DNA of 64,000 bases from Oscillospiraceae bacterium. Its GTDB lineage: Bacteria; Bacillota; Clostridia; Oscillospirales; Acutalibacteraceae. The stretch covers positions 4,293 to 68,292 of the forward strand of contig JAQXMC010000012.1 in assembly GCA_029012445.1 (NCBI GenBank), written 5' to 3'. Below are positions 47,968 through 52,814 of this stretch, one piece after another. The notes under the pieces were generated by a model, which did not search any database, had not been told where the DNA came from, and saw only the letters and a program-made list of their open reading frames with translations. The number at the start of each line of letters is the position of its first letter. Within the stretch, counting starts at the first letter, position 1. The position numbers were made by a program, and so were the translations under genes.

Positions 47968-48726
47968 ATGAAAGATGCAAAAACCTTAGCGTATATCAAC
48001 CTTTTCGGTATCTTAGGCGCTTTGGAAAATCTTTGTGAGCTTGACGAAGGCGCACAGGAACTGTTAAGAGGCAAAAAGCCCATCTCTATCGGCATCACCG
48101 TTAAAGACGGACCGAGCGCAACGCTCACCTTCAAGAATTGCCGCTGCAGAATGGAAGAGGGCTGCGACAAGTGCGATGTCAAGCTCCCGTTCTCATCCTG
48201 CGAGAAGTTCAACGGTCTCATCGACGGAACAACAACACCCATTCCGTCAAAGGGCTTCACCCATATCGGCTTTCTTCTCAAGCAGTTTGTCGGCCTGACG
48301 GATATTCTCACAAAATATCTTCGCCCGACCGAGGAGGATCTCAAAGATGAGAAGTTCTTCGAGATCAGCACGAAGATCATGTTCTATCTGATAACGGTCG
48401 CTATTTCACAGATAGCCAACCACGACGAAATCGGCAAGTTCAGCGCTCATCTCGTTCCCGACGGCATTATCGAAATGTCGATCAAGGACTCCGTCGGCGC
48501 AACGATCAGAGTCAAGGATCATCACTTCGTGACCATCAAGCAGAAGCCTCAGTCATACCGTTCGGCTATGCAGTTCAGTGACATTCATCTCGCCCGCGAC
48601 CTCTTTGACGGCAAGGTCAACGCTGTTGCCTGCATCGGCGACGGCTCGATCGAAATGCACGGTATGATCAACATGATAGACAATGTCAACAGAATTCTTG
48701 ACAGAGTCGGTCTGTATTTAGCATAA
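47968..48726 (+). CDS. SCP2 (sterol-carrier-protein-2)-like double-module protein, paralog 1
   Basis: 252 aa with two SCP2-like patterns: ISIGITVKDGPSATLTFKN...DVKLPFSSCEKFNGLIDG and MQFSDIHLARDLFDGKVNAVACIGDGSIEMHG. Domain assignment is by motif only. AAGGAGG SD. Confidence 0.5.
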   Translation: MKDAKTLAYINLFGILGALENLCELDEGAQELLRGKKPISIGITVKDGPSATLTFKNCRCRMEEGCDKCDVKLPFSSCEKFNGLIDGTTTPIPSKGFTHIGFLLKQFVGLTDILTKYLRPTEEDLKDEKFFEISTKIMFYLITVAISQIANHDEIGKFSAHLVPDGIIEMSIKDSVGATIRVKDHHFVTIKQKPQSYRSAMQFSDIHLARDLFDGKVNAVACIGDGSIEMHGMINMIDNVNRILDRVGLYLA

Positions 48727-48739
48727 GGAGGGTTTTAAA

Positions 48740-50011
48740 ATGAGTTTTCCTACATATAAAAATGATAAAAGCTCCGAGCTTTATGCGAGAGCAACAAAGG
48801 TTATCCCTTCAGGCGTCTACGGTCATTTAGGTCCCGCCGAAGGTCAGTTCATTCCCGTTCAGAAGTGGCCCCGCTTCTCCGAAAAGGCAAAGGGCGCCTA
48901 TTTCTGGGATGTTGACGGCAACAGATATATCGACTATATGTGCGCCTACGGTCCGAATGTTCTCGGCTACGGCGATCCCGATGTTGACAAGGCGGCTCTG
49001 GCTCAGCTCAAGCTCGGCAACTGCACGACCTCGCCCAACAAAATCATGGTTGACTGCGCCGAGCTTCTCGTTGACACCGTCAACAGCGCCGACTGGGCTT
49101 TCTTCGCCAAAAACGGCAACGATGTCACTCAGGCCGCTATCCTGACGGCAAGAGCCTACACCCACAGAAAGAAGATCATCTTCTTCAACGGCTTCTATCA
49201 CGGCGTTTCGGCAGTCGTTCAGAAGATCGACTATCCGGGCATTCTCCCCGAAGATGTCGCCAATAACCTCTATGTTCCCTGGGACGATATCGACGGTCTC
49301 AAGAAGGTCATCGAGGAGAACAAGGGCGAAATCGCCGGTCTCATCGCTCAGCCCTATGACCACGGTAACTTCTATGACAACAAGATTTCTTCAAAAGAAT
49401 TCTGGCAGCAGGTCCGCAAGCTCTGCGACGATAACGGAATTATCCTTATCATCGACGATGTCCGCGCCGGCTTCCGTCTTGATCTCGCCGGCTCAGACCA
49501 CTATTTCGGCTTCAAGGCCGACCTTATCTGCTTCTGCAAGGCTCTGGCAAACGGCTACAATATGTCCGCTCTCTGCGGCAGAGAATTCCTCAAGAGCACG
49601 GTTTCCGGTCTTTCATACACCGGTTCCTATTGGATGAGCGCAGTTCCGTTCGCTGCCTGCATCGCCTGCATCAATAAGATGAAGAAGCTCGACACGCCCA
49701 AGCTCTTCAGAGAAATGGGCACAAAGCTCACAGACGGTCTTGTCGCCGCCGGCAAGGAGCATGGCTTTGATCTTGTTGTTTCGGGCGCTCCGGCTCTGTT
49801 CTATCTCAGAATAGCCAACGACGATTCAATGCTCCTTCATCAGGAGTGGATCGCCGAGTGCGTCAACCGCGGCGTTTTCTTCGCTTCGCACCACAACCAC
49901 TTCATAAACGCCGCCCTCACCGACGAGGATATCAAGCTCACGACAGAAATTGCCGAGGACGCTTTCAGTGTTGTCGCAAAGAATCATCCCGAGATCCCCG
50001 AGCTTCACTGA
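48740..50011 (+). CDS. class-III PLP aminotransferase (glutamate-1-semialdehyde aminomutase-like)
   Basis: 423 aa containing VIPSGVYGH, DVDGNRYIDY, ILIIDDVRAGFR, and the PLP-lysine context FCKALANGYNMSA. Confidence 0.8.
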   Translation: MSFPTYKNDKSSELYARATKVIPSGVYGHLGPAEGQFIPVQKWPRFSEKAKGAYFWDVDGNRYIDYMCAYGPNVLGYGDPDVDKAALAQLKLGNCTTSPNKIMVDCAELLVDTVNSADWAFFAKNGNDVTQAAILTARAYTHRKKIIFFNGFYHGVSAVVQKIDYPGILPEDVANNLYVPWDDIDGLKKVIEENKGEIAGLIAQPYDHGNFYDNKISSKEFWQQVRKLCDDNGIILIIDDVRAGFRLDLAGSDHYFGFKADLICFCKALANGYNMSALCGREFLKSTVSGLSYTGSYWMSAVPFAACIACINKMKKLDTPKLFREMGTKLTDGLVAAGKEHGFDLVVSGAPALFYLRIANDDSMLLHQEWIAECVNRGVFFASHHNHFINAALTDEDIKLTTEIAEDAFSVVAKNHPEIPELH

Positions 50012-50097
50012 TAACAGTATTTTATATCATATGCGGCGGGTATGCAGATACTCGCTGCATACATAAAATAAAAAGAAAATTTTAGGAGGAAACAACT

Positions 50098-50976: not shown

Positions 50977-50978
50977 TT

Positions 50979-51989
50979 ATGGCAGGCGGATTTGTATATA
51001 ATGCTATCGACCAGACAGAAGTTGCCACCGCTGAAATTTACGGTAAGGCTCTGGCTGACCTCATAATGAAAGACCCCAGGGTTGTCGCTATCACGGCTGA
51101 CCTTGCAAAATCAACAAAGCTCGGCGATGTTCTCAAGGTTTGCCCCGAGAGAGTCATCAATGTCGGTATTGCCGAGCAGGATATGTTCGGCGTTGCCGCA
51201 GGTATGGCAAGAGCCGGCTGCATTCCTTTCCTTTCAGGTTTCTCCGCTTTCACATCAATGAGAGCCTGCGACCAGCTTCACACCGATATCTGCTATCAGA
51301 ATGTCAACGCTAAGATCATCGCTACCCACGCCGGCACCTCCTTCGGTCAGGCGGGCTCAACTCACCACGCTATCGTCGATCTGGCTATCACCAGAGCAAT
51401 GCCCAACCTGACGGTCATCGTTCCGGCCGACGGCTTTGAGACGGCTAACGCAGTTAACGCTGCCTATGAAAATTACGGTCCCTATTATATCCGCATCAAC
51501 CGCGGCTTTGACCGTGTTCTTTATAAGGATATGGACTACGGCTTCGAGGTCGGCAAGGCGGTCGAGGTCCACGAGGGCACAGATATCACCGTTATAGCCT
51601 GCGGCTCCTGCGTATTCCAGGCAAGAGAAGCGGCTCACTTCCTTGAGAATGCGGACGGACTGAAGGTCAGAGTTCTCAATATGCACACCATCAAGCCCAT
51701 TGACAAAGAAGCTATCTTAAAGGCTGTCATGGACACAAGAAGAATTATCACCGTTGAAGATCACAGCGTCATCGGCGGTCTCGGCTCAGCCGTTTCAGAG
51801 GTTGTTGTCGAATCCGGCAAGGCCTGCGCATTCAAGATGCTCGGTCACCCCGATAAGTTTGCGCCCATCGGTCTGCATGAAGATATCATGTCGGAAGTCG
51901 GCATAGACGCCAACGGCATCATCGCCGCCGTCCGTGAGGTTATGAAGAAAGACTTTGAAGAAGACGACAACTGGGACGACGAATTCTAA
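50979..51989 (+). CDS. transketolase-family protein, C-terminal (pyrimidine-binding) subunit
   Basis: 336 aa containing NVGIAEQDMFGVAAGMA, GSTHHAIVDLAI, and a C-terminal domain (VLNMHTIKPID). Confidence 0.85.
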   Translation: MAGGFVYNAIDQTEVATAEIYGKALADLIMKDPRVVAITADLAKSTKLGDVLKVCPERVINVGIAEQDMFGVAAGMARAGCIPFLSGFSAFTSMRACDQLHTDICYQNVNAKIIATHAGTSFGQAGSTHHAIVDLAITRAMPNLTVIVPADGFETANAVNAAYENYGPYYIRINRGFDRVLYKDMDYGFEVGKAVEVHEGTDITVIACGSCVFQAREAAHFLENADGLKVRVLNMHTIKPIDKEAILKAVMDTRRIITVEDHSVIGGLGSAVSEVVVESGKACAFKMLGHPDKFAPIGLHEDIMSEVGIDANGIIAAVREVMKKDFEEDDNWDDEF

Positions 51990-52010
51990 TACAGGAAAGG
52001 AGCAAATATA

Positions 52011-52814
52011 ATGTCAATACCACAGGAAGCATTATATTCAAACAAAATATTCTTAAATGCTGCTCTTCCCCTCGTTAAGGTCATTGCAACCGATGTTCCG
52101 TCTCTTGCGAAGAAGTTTGAACACGCTCACGCGGTCATTCAGGTCAGCTGTCTCAACCCCGAGGTACCGGAAGGAAAAGTCGGTATGCACTTCGTTGTCA
52201 ACAGCGGCGAATGGCTCGTTCACACCTGCCTGACGAAGGACCCCCACATCGAGCTTCAGTTCAAGAGCGTTGAGGCTCTCAACGGCTTTTTCAAGGGTAA
52301 CATCACACTCGGCGCAATCCCGAAAATTCACGGCATAAAGAAAGCCGGAGTGCTTGTCGCCTTTGTTCAGGTTCTTCTCAAGATGGCCTCCCTTCTCGGC
52401 GCGGACAAAGCCCCCGAAGATGAAGAAACACAGAAGCTCATGGTCAAATGCTTCTTCTATCTTCTCACGAGCGGTATCAGCCAGCTTAATAAGATGGGCC
52501 ACCCCGAGATCCACGAGTGGGCTTCAAAATCGCCCGACAGAGTTTATGCTCTCGCGGTCAACGATCACCCCGAGGTTTCGGCTTATATCAGAGTCAAGGC
52601 GGGCAAAACAAGAGCCGGCAGAGGCGAATATAAGAGAGCCATGCCCTTCTTCACACTGCGTTTTGACTCCTTCAAGAGTGCGCTCGGCATTCTTCTCGGA
52701 ACAGACGATATGCTTGAATCAACAAAGAACGGAAAGCTCATCATGGACGGTGCTCCGGAATTCGGCGCGCAGCTCGGCGGTTTCCTTCTGATGATCGGCG
52801 ATCTCGCAAAATAA
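52011..52814 (+). CDS. SCP2-like double-module protein, paralog 2
   Basis: 267 aa with the same layout as 47968-48726 (IELQFKSVEALNGFFKG.., TLRFDSFKSALGILLGTDDMLESTKNGKLIMDG). Confidence 0.5.
   Translation: MSIPQEALYSNKIFLNAALPLVKVIATDVPSLAKKFEHAHAVIQVSCLNPEVPEGKVGMHFVVNSGEWLVHTCLTKDPHIELQFKSVEALNGFFKGNITLGAIPKIHGIKKAGVLVAFVQVLLKMASLLGADKAPEDEETQKLMVKCFFYLLTSGISQLNKMGHPEIHEWASKSPDRVYALAVNDHPEVSAYIRVKAGKTRAGRGEYKRAMPFFTLRFDSFKSALGILLGTDDMLESTKNGKLIMDGAPEFGAQLGGFLLMIGDLAK

Follow-up and report, generated by a model that had tools for sequence, protein, structure and literature searches.

A five-gene cassette pairing a split transketolase and a FumI-like aminotransferase with two predicted SCP2-fold proteins, and its possible role in long-chain amino-diol metabolism

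A stretch of 64,000 nucleotides from an Oscillospiraceae bacterium (GenBank assembly GCA_029012445.1, contig JAQXMC010000012.1), hereafter the window, contains a five-gene operon (the cassette) encoding protein A, an aminotransferase (AT), the two subunits of a split transketolase (TK-N and TK-C) and protein B. The cofactor and catalytic residues of the transketolase are kept and two substrate residues are replaced. The gene order is shared by distant phyla, and at some loci the transketolase is swapped for another ThDP enzyme. Proteins A and B are predicted to be lipid-carrier folds. The cassette is tentatively read, at somewhat less than an even chance, as a cytosolic self-contained ThDP/PLP pair with lipid chaperones that would convert a fatty aldehyde and a C2 unit into long-chain 2-amino-1,3-diols, or the reverse.

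Results

Operon organization

The cassette is a single unit of five genes on the + strand, from 47968 to 52814 (Table 1). The five ORFs listed in an earlier reading of the letters alone (the sequence-only reading) were recovered, each with a strong SD (AAGGAGG for A, AAGGAGGG for AT, TAGGAGG for TK-N, AAGGAGGG for TK-C and GAAAGGAG for B). Successive genes are separated by 13, 86, 2 and 21 nt. The 86-nt gap of that reading is real; it is the second gap, between AT and TK-N, and not the fourth, and the other three gaps are short. The stem-loop described in it at about 50040-50062 was found again, with arms GTATGCAG (50040-50047) and CTGCATAC (50055-50062). As the stem is not followed by a U tract, this hairpin is not a canonical terminator; it is possibly an RNA processing or stability element. 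The spacer measures 24-579 nt in related loci and is therefore not conserved. The promoter-like site matches the consensus at 10 of 12 positions and has an extended -10 TG. A single terminator had been placed at 52828-52864, and a terminator-like hairpin with a T run is present at 52828-52860. No further enzyme genes were found in the transcription unit, which in the window adjoins dnaA, among core genes.

Table 1. Features of the cassette and its borders in the window.
Feature	Position	Strand	Evidence or description
Intrinsic-terminator-like hairpin, 5' boundary of cassette, ends upstream small-ORF unit	47759-47789	+	14-bp stem, then T run
Promoter-like site, TTGACA-17 nt-(TG)TAAACT, ~75 nt before first start codon	47863-47891	+	Consensus match only
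Protein A (predicted tandem SCP2 fold), 252 aa	47968-48726	+	ORF
Aminotransferase (AT), 423 aa	48740-50011	+	ORF
Stable RNA hairpin, AT/TK-N spacer	50030-50061	+	dG -23.9 kcal/mol, z = -6.6 vs shuffles
TK-N (transketolase N-terminal, PP-domain subunit), 292 aa	50098-50976	+	ORF
TK-C (transketolase C-terminal, Pyr + TKC subunit), 336 aa	50979-51989	+	ORF
Protein B (predicted tandem SCP2 fold), 267 aa	52011-52814	+	ORF
Intrinsic-terminator-like hairpin, 3' end of operon	52828-52867	+	14-bp stem, then TTTCTTTT

Active sites of the two enzymes

TK-N matched Pfam Transketolase_N (E = 8e-41), with 6yak, the split transketolase of C. hydrogenoformans, as best PDB match; TK-C matched Transket_pyr and Transketolase_C. 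The ThDP motif GDG...N and His33, His73, His106 and His260 are invariant in TK-N, which also carries the cassette-specific motifs SGH[IFL]GG, G[MI]HLD and GSLGHG. TK-C keeps the equivalents of E. coli S385, E411, H461, H473 and R520 and has an acidic tail, DFExDxxWD[DE]E, kept across phyla. In E. coli transketolase, R358, S385, H461 and R520 are ligands of the substrate phosphate, H26, H100, H261, D469 and H473 contact sugar hydroxyls, and R358 and D469 are described as conserved among transketolases (PMC11387542). The cassette enzyme retains the histidines of this set. Position 18 of TK-C (R358) is Ala in 69/72 copies and Ser in 3/72, and positions 124-125 (E468-D469) are Gln-Ala in 70/70. 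The idea that the pair is not of the housekeeping type was thus strengthened, the R358 and D469 equivalents being gone in all cassette copies (70-72), which span several phyla. Three of the four phosphate ligands (S385, H461, R520) are retained, so one of the substrates may be anionic or phosphorylated. In the E. coli enzyme, the substitutions D469A and D469T raise activity with propionaldehyde only, and the product, 1,3-dihydroxypentan-2-one (PMC3657141), is a short-chain analogue of the intermediate proposed here.

AT is a class-III (fold type I) PLP enzyme (Pfam Aminotran_3, E = 2e-40). The PLP lysine noted before is present as K267 and is invariant in 87/87 relatives. The best PDB match was 6hbs, the aminopentol aminotransferase FumI (302 bits), at 38% identity, a level that leaves substrate specificity unfixed; FumI is the sole characterised relative in the PDB. 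The best GSA aminomutase reached 177 bits. Assignment of AT as HemL was rejected, since FumI is a far better match and all hemL models scored under cut-off (204 vs 527). FumI removes the amino group of hydrolysed fumonisin B1, a 2-amino-3-ol resembling sphinganine, and leaves the 2-ketone, with pyruvate as acceptor (Km 1.1 uM; PMC3136697). The cassette ATs are ~50% identical to each other across phyla, and each is more distant from FumI.

Predicted folds of proteins A and B

The two flanking proteins are paralogous, as had been supposed: they align end to end and are 30% identical across 142 residues (E = 2e-9). Structure prediction agreed with the proposed SCP2 assignment, both proteins being modelled as tandem SCP2 folds. 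The AF2 model of A (pLDDT 92.9, pTM 0.89) has two alpha/beta domains; that of B reached pLDDT 92.0 and pTM 0.89. With Foldseek against the PDB, every match of A with E <= 0.001 was an SCP2 domain or an SCP2-containing alkylsulfatase, and nearly every match of B was an SCP2 domain. For solved SCP2 relatives among the matches, the PDB descriptions name C16 fatty acid, dodecanol or ubiquinone intermediates as the cargo. Pfam SCP2 scored 17.1 bits on A, which is sub-threshold, and passes the cut-off in distant family members; B had no Pfam SCP2 match. Protein A is acidic and soluble, and B is basic (pI 8.6) with the highest hydropathy among the five products. From its modelled fold, A is a putative lipid chaperone. 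Its family comprises 702 clusters at 50% identity, and a relative is encoded in at least 541 species genomes.

Conservation and variant loci

The five genes co-occur in other genomes, as the sequence-only reading had asked of a functional unit, and gut Oscillospirales share the order A-AT-TKN-TKC-B with metagenome bins of Desulfobacteraceae and Spirochaetes type. The full set was found at 67 of 84 gut Oscillospirales loci, the remainder being mostly cut by contig ends, and at 21 of the 33 environmental loci long enough to judge; the order holds there at a protein A identity of only 28-37%. The flanks are variable (top neighbour family in at most 11/91 loci), so the cassette appears complete in itself. 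Among the cassette neighbourhoods, no aldehyde-forming reductase, N-acyltransferase, kinase or aldehyde dehydrogenase was consistently linked, and no phosphatase or sugar transporter was linked. Extended SDRs adjoin the cassette in two clades and share just 19% identity. Gut Oscillospirales cassettes have housekeeping surroundings and no regulator gene. At the environmental loci, a divergent TetR gene lies upstream in 17/53 and any TetR gene within 5 kb in 25/53, with an alanine dehydrogenase gene behind TetR in five. Locus L088 has a ceramidase-like gene at a distance of 3.6 kb from its cassette; the match to the NCBIfam neutral-ceramidase model is weak (38 bits).

At seven environmental loci, A-AT is followed by a convergent gene in place of the transketolase and protein B. 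Its product (~855 aa) joins an SCP2-like N-terminus to E1 alpha and beta and is an E1-type ThDP enzyme; an SCP2 domain is therefore physically tied to the C-C enzyme. At locus L106, the A-AT pair is accompanied by an extended SDR, and a ThDP enzyme is absent.

These data make it very improbable that the cassette is just a row of ordinary housekeeping genes (a split transketolase of the pentose-phosphate pathway, HemL and two hypothetical proteins unrelated to each other). Split transketolases are common, the top NCBIfam matches were transketolase and GSA aminomutase models, and dnaA and core genes adjoin the cassette. However, every equivalog model scored under its cut-off (226-241 vs 488 for transketolase, besides the hemL scores above), two transketolase substrate residues are replaced in all copies, and the five-gene order is constant across phyla between variable flanks.

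A small polar amino-polyol or amino-sugar pathway, with the SCP2-fold proteins as scaffolds or regulators and not lipid carriers, is also quite improbable. Its models would be the engineered conversion of erythrulose to 2-amino-1,3,4-butanetriol, or aminoshikimate-type chemistry. Polar amino alcohols are reported as in vitro products of transketolase and transaminase (PMC5813273); the R520, H461 and S385 equivalents are kept, and the SCP2 call is fold-based, the Pfam model being below cut-off for A and absent for B. Yet each operon has two dedicated proteins of predicted tandem SCP2 fold, kept across phyla, and the replacement E1 enzyme has a third, fused SCP2-like domain. Moreover, D469, the reader of the alpha-hydroxyl in polar aldoses, is lost, and kinase, phosphatase and sugar transporter are all unlinked.

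Discussion

Proposed pathway and its direction

In the amino-diol reading, the ThDP-dependent split transketolase would make or break the bond between C2 and C3 in R-CHOH-CO-CH2OH (a long-chain 1,3-dihydroxy-2-ketone), equivalent to a fatty aldehyde R-CHO plus a two-carbon ketol unit. The FumI-like AT would interconvert this ketone and a 2-amino-1,3-diol, a sphingoid-base-like lipid, and proteins A and B would carry the water-insoluble aldehyde, ketone and amine to the soluble enzymes. The most economical form would be a closed cycle in the synthetic direction: AT would aminate the keto-diol with serine as donor, giving hydroxypyruvate, which the transketolase would decarboxylate onto the fatty aldehyde. 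The net reaction would be serine + fatty aldehyde -> 2-amino-1,3-diol + CO2, without CoA ester, NADPH or serine palmitoyltransferase. Canonical transketolases give 3S ketols and sphinganine is 3R, so the proposed product would be the threo isomer, unless stereochemistry is altered. Sphingoid-like amino-diols had already been suggested by the sequence-only reading, and the idea gained support because FumI, the nearest characterised relative of AT, takes a sphinganine analogue as substrate, and because D469->Ala matches the mutation favouring aliphatic aldehydes. The function remains inferred in four respects: that the substrate is a lipid, that the chemistry is of the amino-diol kind, that serine is coupled to hydroxypyruvate, and which way the reactions run.

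Synthesis is placed only slightly ahead of breakdown. A divergent TetR gene, sometimes with alanine dehydrogenase behind it, fits inducible catabolism or detoxification better than lipid synthesis. Breakdown or detoxification of sphingoid bases, or of 2-amino-3-hydroxy lipids akin to them, is the likeliest of the other readings, though unlikely by itself. The base would be deaminated by AT with pyruvate to alanine and a 2-keto-1,3-diol; the transketolase would cleave C2-C3, as DesAB cleaves the cortisol ketol side chain, to a fatty aldehyde, the C2 unit going to an acceptor or being freed as glycolaldehyde; and the SCP2 proteins would pull the toxic amphiphile out of the membrane. Sphingoid bases are antimicrobial and FumI runs in the deaminating direction, with pyruvate. 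The TetR and alanine dehydrogenase genes of the environmental loci and the weakly matched ceramidase-like gene also point to breakdown. Acetoin-dehydrogenase-kind E1 enzymes cleave alpha-hydroxyketones, and the SCP2-E1 variant would fit such cleavage. On the other hand, a transketolase can cleave only with an aldose as acceptor, and precisely R358 and D469, the holders of the sugar-phosphate acceptor, are lost. Neither an aldehyde dehydrogenase nor a reductase is linked with any consistency, the gut Oscillospirales cassettes lie without regulator among housekeeping genes, and the ceramidase link is one locus. The only studied bacterial sphingoid-base route, sphBCD of Pseudomonas, is unrelated to the cassette, and its product is not known (PMC11398299).

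Comparison with known systems

The sequence-only reading had pointed to DesAB, the steroid-17,20-desmolase of Clostridium scindens. Like the cassette, DesAB has adjacent N/C transketolase-like subunits in a gut Clostridium and, as proposed here, its substrate is a ketol, HOCH2-CO-C(OH), on a hydrophobic molecule (PMC12876203). Unlike the cassette, des operons contain 20-HSDH and transporter genes and neither aminotransferase nor SCP2 proteins; the cassette, unlike DesAB, is present in non-host sediment bacteria. With the des partner genes absent and the cassette also found in sediment, the steroid analogy gained nothing. Another hydrophobic substrate (a steroid ketol side chain, an acyloin-type signal or a fatty aldehyde/fatty amine pair) is improbable; the steroid form would combine a DesAB-like desmolase with a 20-aminotransferase. 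For DesAB, action of a split transketolase on the side chain of a sterol is established (PMC12876203), sterols, fatty acids and isoprenoid quinones are all SCP2-bound according to PDB descriptions, and L106 would fit carbonyl/amine interconversion of a simple lipid. Nevertheless, no desC, desD or desE type genes were found with the cassette, which occurs in sediment Desulfobacteraceae and Spirochaetes bins, and the nearest characterised relative of AT works on an acyclic 2-amino-3-ol. Natural bacterial metabolism of 20-amino steroids is not known to us.

A natural pair of ThDP C-C enzyme and aminotransferase, like that of the cassette, is found in anisomycin biosynthesis (transketolase-like AniP and AniQ). 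AniQ provides the keto-acid donor and later aminates the ketone product, which parallels the role proposed for AT, and AniP has also lost sugar-transketolase phosphate-binding residues; unlike the cassette enzyme, it is a single chain without the histidine-rich motif, and its substrates are aromatic keto acids (PMC11387542). The AniP/AniQ system also differs in requiring the SDR AniN, in lacking SCP2 proteins and in being restricted to secondary-metabolite clusters of the actinomycete type. Engineered cascades of transketolase and transaminase that yield 2-amino-1,3-diols run both of the proposed reaction types, and in the proposed order. The engineered D469A/T transketolases accept non-hydroxylated aliphatic aldehydes (PMC3657141), and serine transaminases supply hydroxypyruvate in situ to transketolase (PMC8719814). 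Unlike the cassette, these cascades are man-made, with short polar substrates, unrelated enzymes and no carrier proteins. FumI of Sphingopyxis sp. MTA144, the closest solved relative of AT, acts at C2 of a long-chain 2-amino-3-ol with the pyruvate/alanine couple; unlike AT, it belongs to a fumonisin catabolic cluster with carboxylesterase and tricarballylate genes, for which neither a ThDP enzyme nor an SCP2 partner is named (PMC3136697).

The net chemistry proposed is that of serine palmitoyltransferase with 3-ketosphinganine reductase (serine + C16 unit -> C18 2-amino-1,3-diol + CO2), and its reverse is the C2-C3 cleavage to fatty aldehyde by sphingosine-1-phosphate lyase. These canonical enzymes (alpha-oxoamine synthase, SDR, PLP lyase) are of families entirely unlike those of the cassette, and their routes use acyl-CoA, NADPH and ATP, whereas the cassette would use free aldehyde and ThDP. 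For A and B, the parallel is UbiJ/UbiT of ubiquinone biosynthesis, bacterial SCP2-fold proteins through which soluble enzymes gain access to a membrane lipid; UbiJ-SCP2 (6h6n, 6h6o, 6h6p) was among the top structural matches of both. Unlike A and B, UbiJ/UbiT have one SCP2 domain, bind polyprenyl quinone intermediates and show no sequence kinship.

In the literature search, no published description of the five-gene cassette or its function and no report of sphingoid-type lipids from these uncultured lineages was found. If the proposal is true, the cassette would represent a so far unreported route for the synthesis or breakdown of sphingosine-like amino-alcohol lipids.

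Operon layout and surroundings

The cassette consists of five consecutive ORFs of 252, 423, 292, 336 and 267 aa, located exactly where the sequence-only reading had placed them and each preceded, as it had stated, by a strong Shine-Dalgarno sequence. In order, they encode protein A, a class-III aminotransferase (AT), the two subunits of a split transketolase (TK-N and TK-C) and protein B. The genes are separated by gaps of 13, 86, 2 and 21 nt. The single long gap that had been reported was thus recovered, but it is the second, not the fourth. The stem-loop described in this spacer was found again and is longer than first drawn (dG -23.9 kcal/mol, z = -6.6); it is followed by no U tract. 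Since relatives have AT/TK-N spacers of anywhere between 24 and 579 nt, the hairpin was considered a local feature. The unit is closed by a hairpin of terminator type, again as first read. An Rfam scan of the window detected no riboswitch or other family ahead of the cassette. Positions are collected in the table.

The two small ORFs upstream have a promoter-like site and a terminator of their own; their peptides (MIGNVDILGLWDMFISFMDRLVAWLVFIFGGGDWDPDAVSGKK and MDWYLFRDLYVFFKNAFTKFLNWIFVNFGSNENSDG) are aromatic and hydrophobic. In the GT2/LicD protein, the domains are connected via a lysine/glycine linker (KKKKKKGGAKKKKGGG). The replication-origin neighbourhood was recognized behind the cassette, with the cumulative GC skew minimum at 52-54 kb of the window. 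A DnaA box with one mismatch, TTATCTACA, is present right behind the -10 element of the cassette.

Features of the window and of related loci (L handles: loci in gut or environmental genomes and metagenomes)
Feature	Sequence	Position	Strand	Remark
tmRNA	window	2774-3128	-	Rfam scan
Small SRP RNA	window	6391-6488	-	Rfam scan
tRNA (one)	window	11661-11733	+	Rfam scan
946-aa protein	window	42730-45570	-	two GT2 glycosyltransferase domains, C-terminal LicD domain
Promoter-like site of small-ORF pair	window	47344-47372		
Two small ORFs (43 and 36 aa)	window	47430-47561, 47586-47696	+	strong Shine-Dalgarno sequences; immediately upstream of cassette
Terminator of upstream unit (small-ORF pair)	window	47759-47789	+	
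Promoter-like site of cassette	window	47863-47891	+	directly past the upstream unit's terminator
DnaA box, one mismatch	window	47896-47904		
Cassette	window	47968-52814	+	five genes
Spacer hairpin	window	50030-50061		AT/TK-N gap
Terminator-like hairpin and T run	window	52828-52860		
Replication-origin neighbourhood	window	52865-54700		
dnaA start codon	window	53064		TTG
dnaA, dnaN, recF, gyrB, gyrA	window			directly downstream of cassette
DnaA-box match cluster	window	54418, 54435		dnaA-dnaN spacer
Exact DnaA box	window	54568		dnaA-dnaN spacer
Toxin-antitoxin insertions	L088	10787-10981, 14169-14773		
Fragmented TK-C	L087	12963-13975		
Incomplete cassette with ROK-family regulator	L013	10281-14073		
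Extended SDR (example)	L071	7645-8679		
Region cited with lineage-specific neighbours of L052-L071 subclade	L068	6204-7808		
SCP2-like/E1 fusion (example)	L112	8565-11135	-	also L094, L096, L100, L101, L113, L124

Flanking proteins A and B

Proteins A and B are paralogs, as proposed (30% identity, alignable over the whole length). When the A/B profile was run against PDB sequences, only xylanase and pectate lyase were returned, at chance level (E > 0.02), so that a fold search was needed. AlphaFold2 models were built from family alignments (pLDDT 92.9 for A and 92.0 for B; pTM 0.89 each) and both contained two consecutive alpha/beta domains. The model of A was compared with the PDB using Foldseek and gave 36 matches at E <= 0.001, all of them SCP2 domains or SCP2-containing alkylsulfatases, with target TM-scores of 0.5-0.68 against single SCP2 domains. 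The same set, almost only SCP2 domains, was obtained for B. These matches comprised the alkylsulfatase SCP2 domain, UbiJ-SCP2, the yeast, insect and mammalian SCP2 and the SCP2-like domain of MFE-2. The initial SCP2 assignment was upheld by these predictions.

With Pfam PF02036 (cut-off 21.3 bits), A scored 17.1 bits and B gave no match; two distant members of the family passed the cut-off (30.8 and 34.4 bits), and a precomputed PF02036 match was found on many environmental members. By the models, A and B have an SCP2 fold; the two constitute a tandem family of their own. B is basic (pI 8.6), whereas the other four cassette proteins are acidic. No signal peptide-like or transmembrane-like stretch was detected in any of the five.

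Aminotransferase

The second gene product matched Pfam PF00202 (Aminotran_3) with 139 bits. Its Schiff-base lysine, K267, was invariant in 87/87 relatives, in agreement with the PLP lysine noted before. D240 was equally invariant (87/87), its role as the partner of PLP N1 being assigned from the motif position and not from a structure. Domain, lysine and aspartate are those of the class-III PLP aminotransferases (fold type I). The earlier description as a GSA-aminomutase-like PLP enzyme held for the class-III PLP fold but not for a HemL/GSAM identity, which was ruled out by the scores (TIGR00713, 204 vs a cut-off of 527.3; NF000818, 221 vs 398; NF004856, 206 vs 486). By a wide margin, the top match among PDB sequences was FumI (6hbs; 302 bits, 38% identity, 407 columns), the fumonisin-catabolic aminopentol aminotransferase of Sphingopyxis, which stood above every GSAM structure (the best at 177 bits). 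Judged by sequence, the cassette enzyme is a class-III aminotransferase, not HemL; its probable FumI-like character rests on the 38% identity. The FumI substrate, hydrolysed fumonisin B1, is a sphinganine analogue with a long chain and a 2-amino-3-hydroxy group; FumI takes off its C2 amino group to give the 2-ketone, with pyruvate as the preferred acceptor and a Km of 1.1 uM (PMC3136697).

Transketolase pair

TK-N is the PP-domain subunit and TK-C the Pyr + TKC subunit, with Carboxydothermus hydrogenoformans providing the nearest structure, likewise of a split enzyme. The Pfam models Transketolase_N, Transket_pyr and Transketolase_C each scored above their cut-offs. The ThDP/metal motif G150-D151-G152...N181 of TK-N and the cofactor-activating glutamate of TK-C (E66, IAEQ motif) are invariant, which places the pair in the transketolase superfamily. 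Scores against the NCBIfam transketolase equivalogs were 226-241 bits vs a cut-off of 488.

Cassette subunits from four lineages were aligned with the transketolases of C. hydrogenoformans and human, and residues were tallied over 70-80 cassette copies (E. coli transketolase numbering). The equivalents of H26, H100, H261 and H473 are present and invariant, and those of the phosphate ligands S385, H461 and R520 are retained. The R358 position holds Ala in 69/72 copies, Ser in 3/72 and Arg in none (0/72), and E468-D469 is replaced by Gln-Ala in 70/70. Substrate phosphate is bound by R358, S385, H461 and R520, all four conserved across transketolases and DXS, and D469 hydrogen-bonds the sugar hydroxyl (the acceptor alpha-hydroxyl) and chooses the stereoisomer (PMC11387542). 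In E. coli transketolase, D469A and D469T raise activity on propionaldehyde only, giving 1,3-dihydroxypentan-2-one (PMC3657141). With Ala at the D469 position, the natural enzyme thus bears a directed-evolution substitution for non-hydroxylated aliphatic aldehydes. To go by the aligned residues, the pair belongs to the transketolase superfamily and lacks two defining features of sugar-phosphate transketolases, the R358 and D469 equivalents; the suspicion that it is not of the housekeeping type was confirmed on these two points.

TK-C ends in an acidic tail, DFExDxxWD[DE]E (DFEEDDNWDDEF in the window), whose conservation extends from Oscillospirales as far as Desulfobacteraceae-type bins; both canonical enzymes of the alignment (C. 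hydrogenoformans and human) lack it. As a guess only, it might be a docking element.

Distribution and synteny

A first search returned 2121 relatives of protein A at 90% clustering, and the A + B profile gave 702 clusters (50% identity). A narrow A alignment was then run against one genome for each GTDB species and returned close relatives only; at least 541 species genomes with a protein A relative were obtained. The best 80 of these at least 541 were Acutalibacteraceae, Oscillospiraceae or 'Clostridia' bins, save one labelled Bacteroidaceae, and their gut sources were human, ruminant, deer and horse. No match for protein A was found on plasmids (tblastn against PLSDB).

That the five genes form a set was borne out: the order A-AT-TKN-TKC-B was complete in 67/84 gut loci, and nearly all the others were cut by a contig edge. 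Flanks vary across the gut loci (jag/yidC, nusA/infB or, in the window, dnaA) and the commonest neighbouring protein family occurred in at most 11/91 loci. An environmental clade was also found, with A proteins 28-37% identical to that of the window; its bins bear the labels Desulfobacteraceae, Spirochaetes or Pseudomonadota. The gene order is identical in five environmental loci (L085, L086, L087, L089 and L090). Another 80 loci of the clade, from metagenomes, included 33 of judgeable length, and the cassette was complete in 21 of these. A divergent TetR gene was present within 1 kb upstream in 17/53 environmental loci, with an alanine dehydrogenase gene behind it in five.

Individual loci showed local rearrangements. 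In the L088 locus, the order is kept and toxin-antitoxin genes are inserted, HicB-like between A and AT, and DUF433 + Mut7-C/PIN-like between TK-C and B. The same locus has, 3.6 kb downstream on the opposite strand, a ceramidase-like gene that was not retained as a partner (38 bits vs a cut-off of 1200) and is a hint from a single locus only. TK-C is in fragments in L087. In L013, A and AT are followed by a ROK-family regulator, and TK-N, TK-C and B are absent; either a true loss or a joining of scaffolds might account for this. In a gut Oscillospirales subclade (L052-L071), nine loci have an extended-SDR gene (339-344 aa) behind B, at a distance of 63-157 nt; in two others, the SDR gene is upstream on the opposite strand. 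Eight loci carry a second GSAM-like class-III aminotransferase gene (328-534 aa as called) 193-4274 nt upstream on the opposite strand.

Variants with an E1 fusion

Twelve environmental loci retain A and the aminotransferase and partly or wholly lack the transketolase and B. In 7/12 of these, a convergent gene ends 7-73 nt past that of the aminotransferase and encodes a protein of about 855 aa, in which an SCP2-like N-terminal domain is joined to fused E1 alpha and beta parts of pyruvate/acetoin-dehydrogenase type. Assignment of this N-terminus as probably SCP2-like rests on four orthologues that match the whole Pfam SCP2 model at 15-20.7 bits, below the cut-off of 21.3; its comparison with the A/B profile by hhalign was not significant. 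The position of the fusion, in place of the transketolase and B, indicates that the transketolase has been replaced by a different ThDP enzyme, one that forms or cleaves the bond beside a carbonyl. In the E1 variant, a FumI-like aminotransferase with its tandem-SCP2 partner is tied in function to an SCP2 carrier and a ThDP C-C enzyme.

In another locus (L106), the A-AT pair is found with an extended SDR and without a ThDP enzyme, so that A-AT looks like a core 'lipid carbonyl/amine' module. The sulfatases upstream in this locus were rejected as partners: they carry a TAT signal and are probably periplasmic and without relation to the cytosolic pair. The extended SDRs of two clades were likewise not accepted as one conserved accessory gene (19% mutual identity).

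Proposed chemistry and its direction

No description of this gene set was found in full-text literature searches. The steroid-17,20-desmolase DesAB has, like the cassette, adjacent split transketolase-like genes; the SSTDhunter paper names no residues that are diagnostic (PMC12876203). The DesAB genes sit in a cortisol-inducible des operon with the desC or desE 20-HSDH and the desD transporter, whereas no conserved HSDH or transporter neighbour was found across 91 gut and 86 environmental loci. The AniQ/AniP pair of anisomycin biosynthesis has a working mode comparable to the synthesis proposed here (PMC11387542). In its proposed working the cassette is of the DesAB or AniP/AniQ type, but it is a member of neither. 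We regard it as a putative ThDP/PLP cascade with lipid chaperones.

In the simplest chemistry that fits these findings, the ThDP enzyme would act on the C2-C3 bond of R-CHOH-CO-CH2OH. This ketone and a sphingoid-type base, R-CHOH-CHNH2-CH2OH, would be interconverted by the aminotransferase. Carriage of the lipids would fall to the SCP2 proteins, the two tandem-SCP2 chaperones keeping them soluble. For synthesis, the aminotransferase would pass the amino group of serine to the lipid keto-diol, freeing hydroxypyruvate, which the transketolase, with its remodelled acceptor site, would decarboxylate onto a fatty aldehyde to give the keto-diol again. The net reaction of this closed two-enzyme cycle would be serine + fatty aldehyde -> amino-diol + CO2. 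In the E1 variant, the same cycle would run with alanine and pyruvate and yield a 1-deoxy base, with the head group of the FumI substrate. It is rather improbable, in our estimate, that the closed cycle is a new route to sphingoid bases dispensing with serine palmitoyltransferase, acyl-CoA and NADPH.

As to direction, amino-diol synthesis was only tentatively placed slightly ahead of breakdown. Synthesis is favoured by the lost residues, which serve sugar-phosphate partners and not hydroxypyruvate and a plain aldehyde. It is also favoured by the choice of serine as donor, since this yields hydroxypyruvate, the transketolase donor, and would make the cassette self-sufficient; recycling of serine to hydroxypyruvate is also used in engineered cascades (PMC8719814). 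Breakdown of sphingoid-type bases by the same enzyme pair, which we consider unlikely but worth weighing, would correspond to the physiological direction of FumI and is consistent with the association with TetR and alanine dehydrogenase and with the DesAB analogy. A caveat concerns the stereochemistry: canonical transketolase forms 3S ketols, from which threo and not erythro bases would result; the fumonisin arrangement is of the threo type (2S,3S).

Significance

The cassette is small enough to be expressed from one piece of DNA and yields predictions at the level of residues. As a lead for biocatalysis, it may offer a natural transketolase suited to non-hydroxylated aldehydes, a matched transaminase and lipid-solubilising proteins; engineered amino-diol cascades have aimed at just such a combination. 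In the gut, sphingoid bases and their analogues are lipids with strong effects on membranes and in signalling. To our knowledge, their production and breakdown by bacteria are known from few lineages and few enzyme families only. The cassette is widespread, mostly in uncultured gut Acutalibacteraceae and Oscillospirales of humans, ruminants and horses, and would represent a new pathway if the amino-diol chemistry is true. If either direction is true, the microbiota would have a further means of making or removing sphingosine-like molecules. If it is synthesis, hundreds of uncultured gut Oscillospirales species, together with anaerobic sediment bacteria, would make free amino-diol lipids that have been overlooked.
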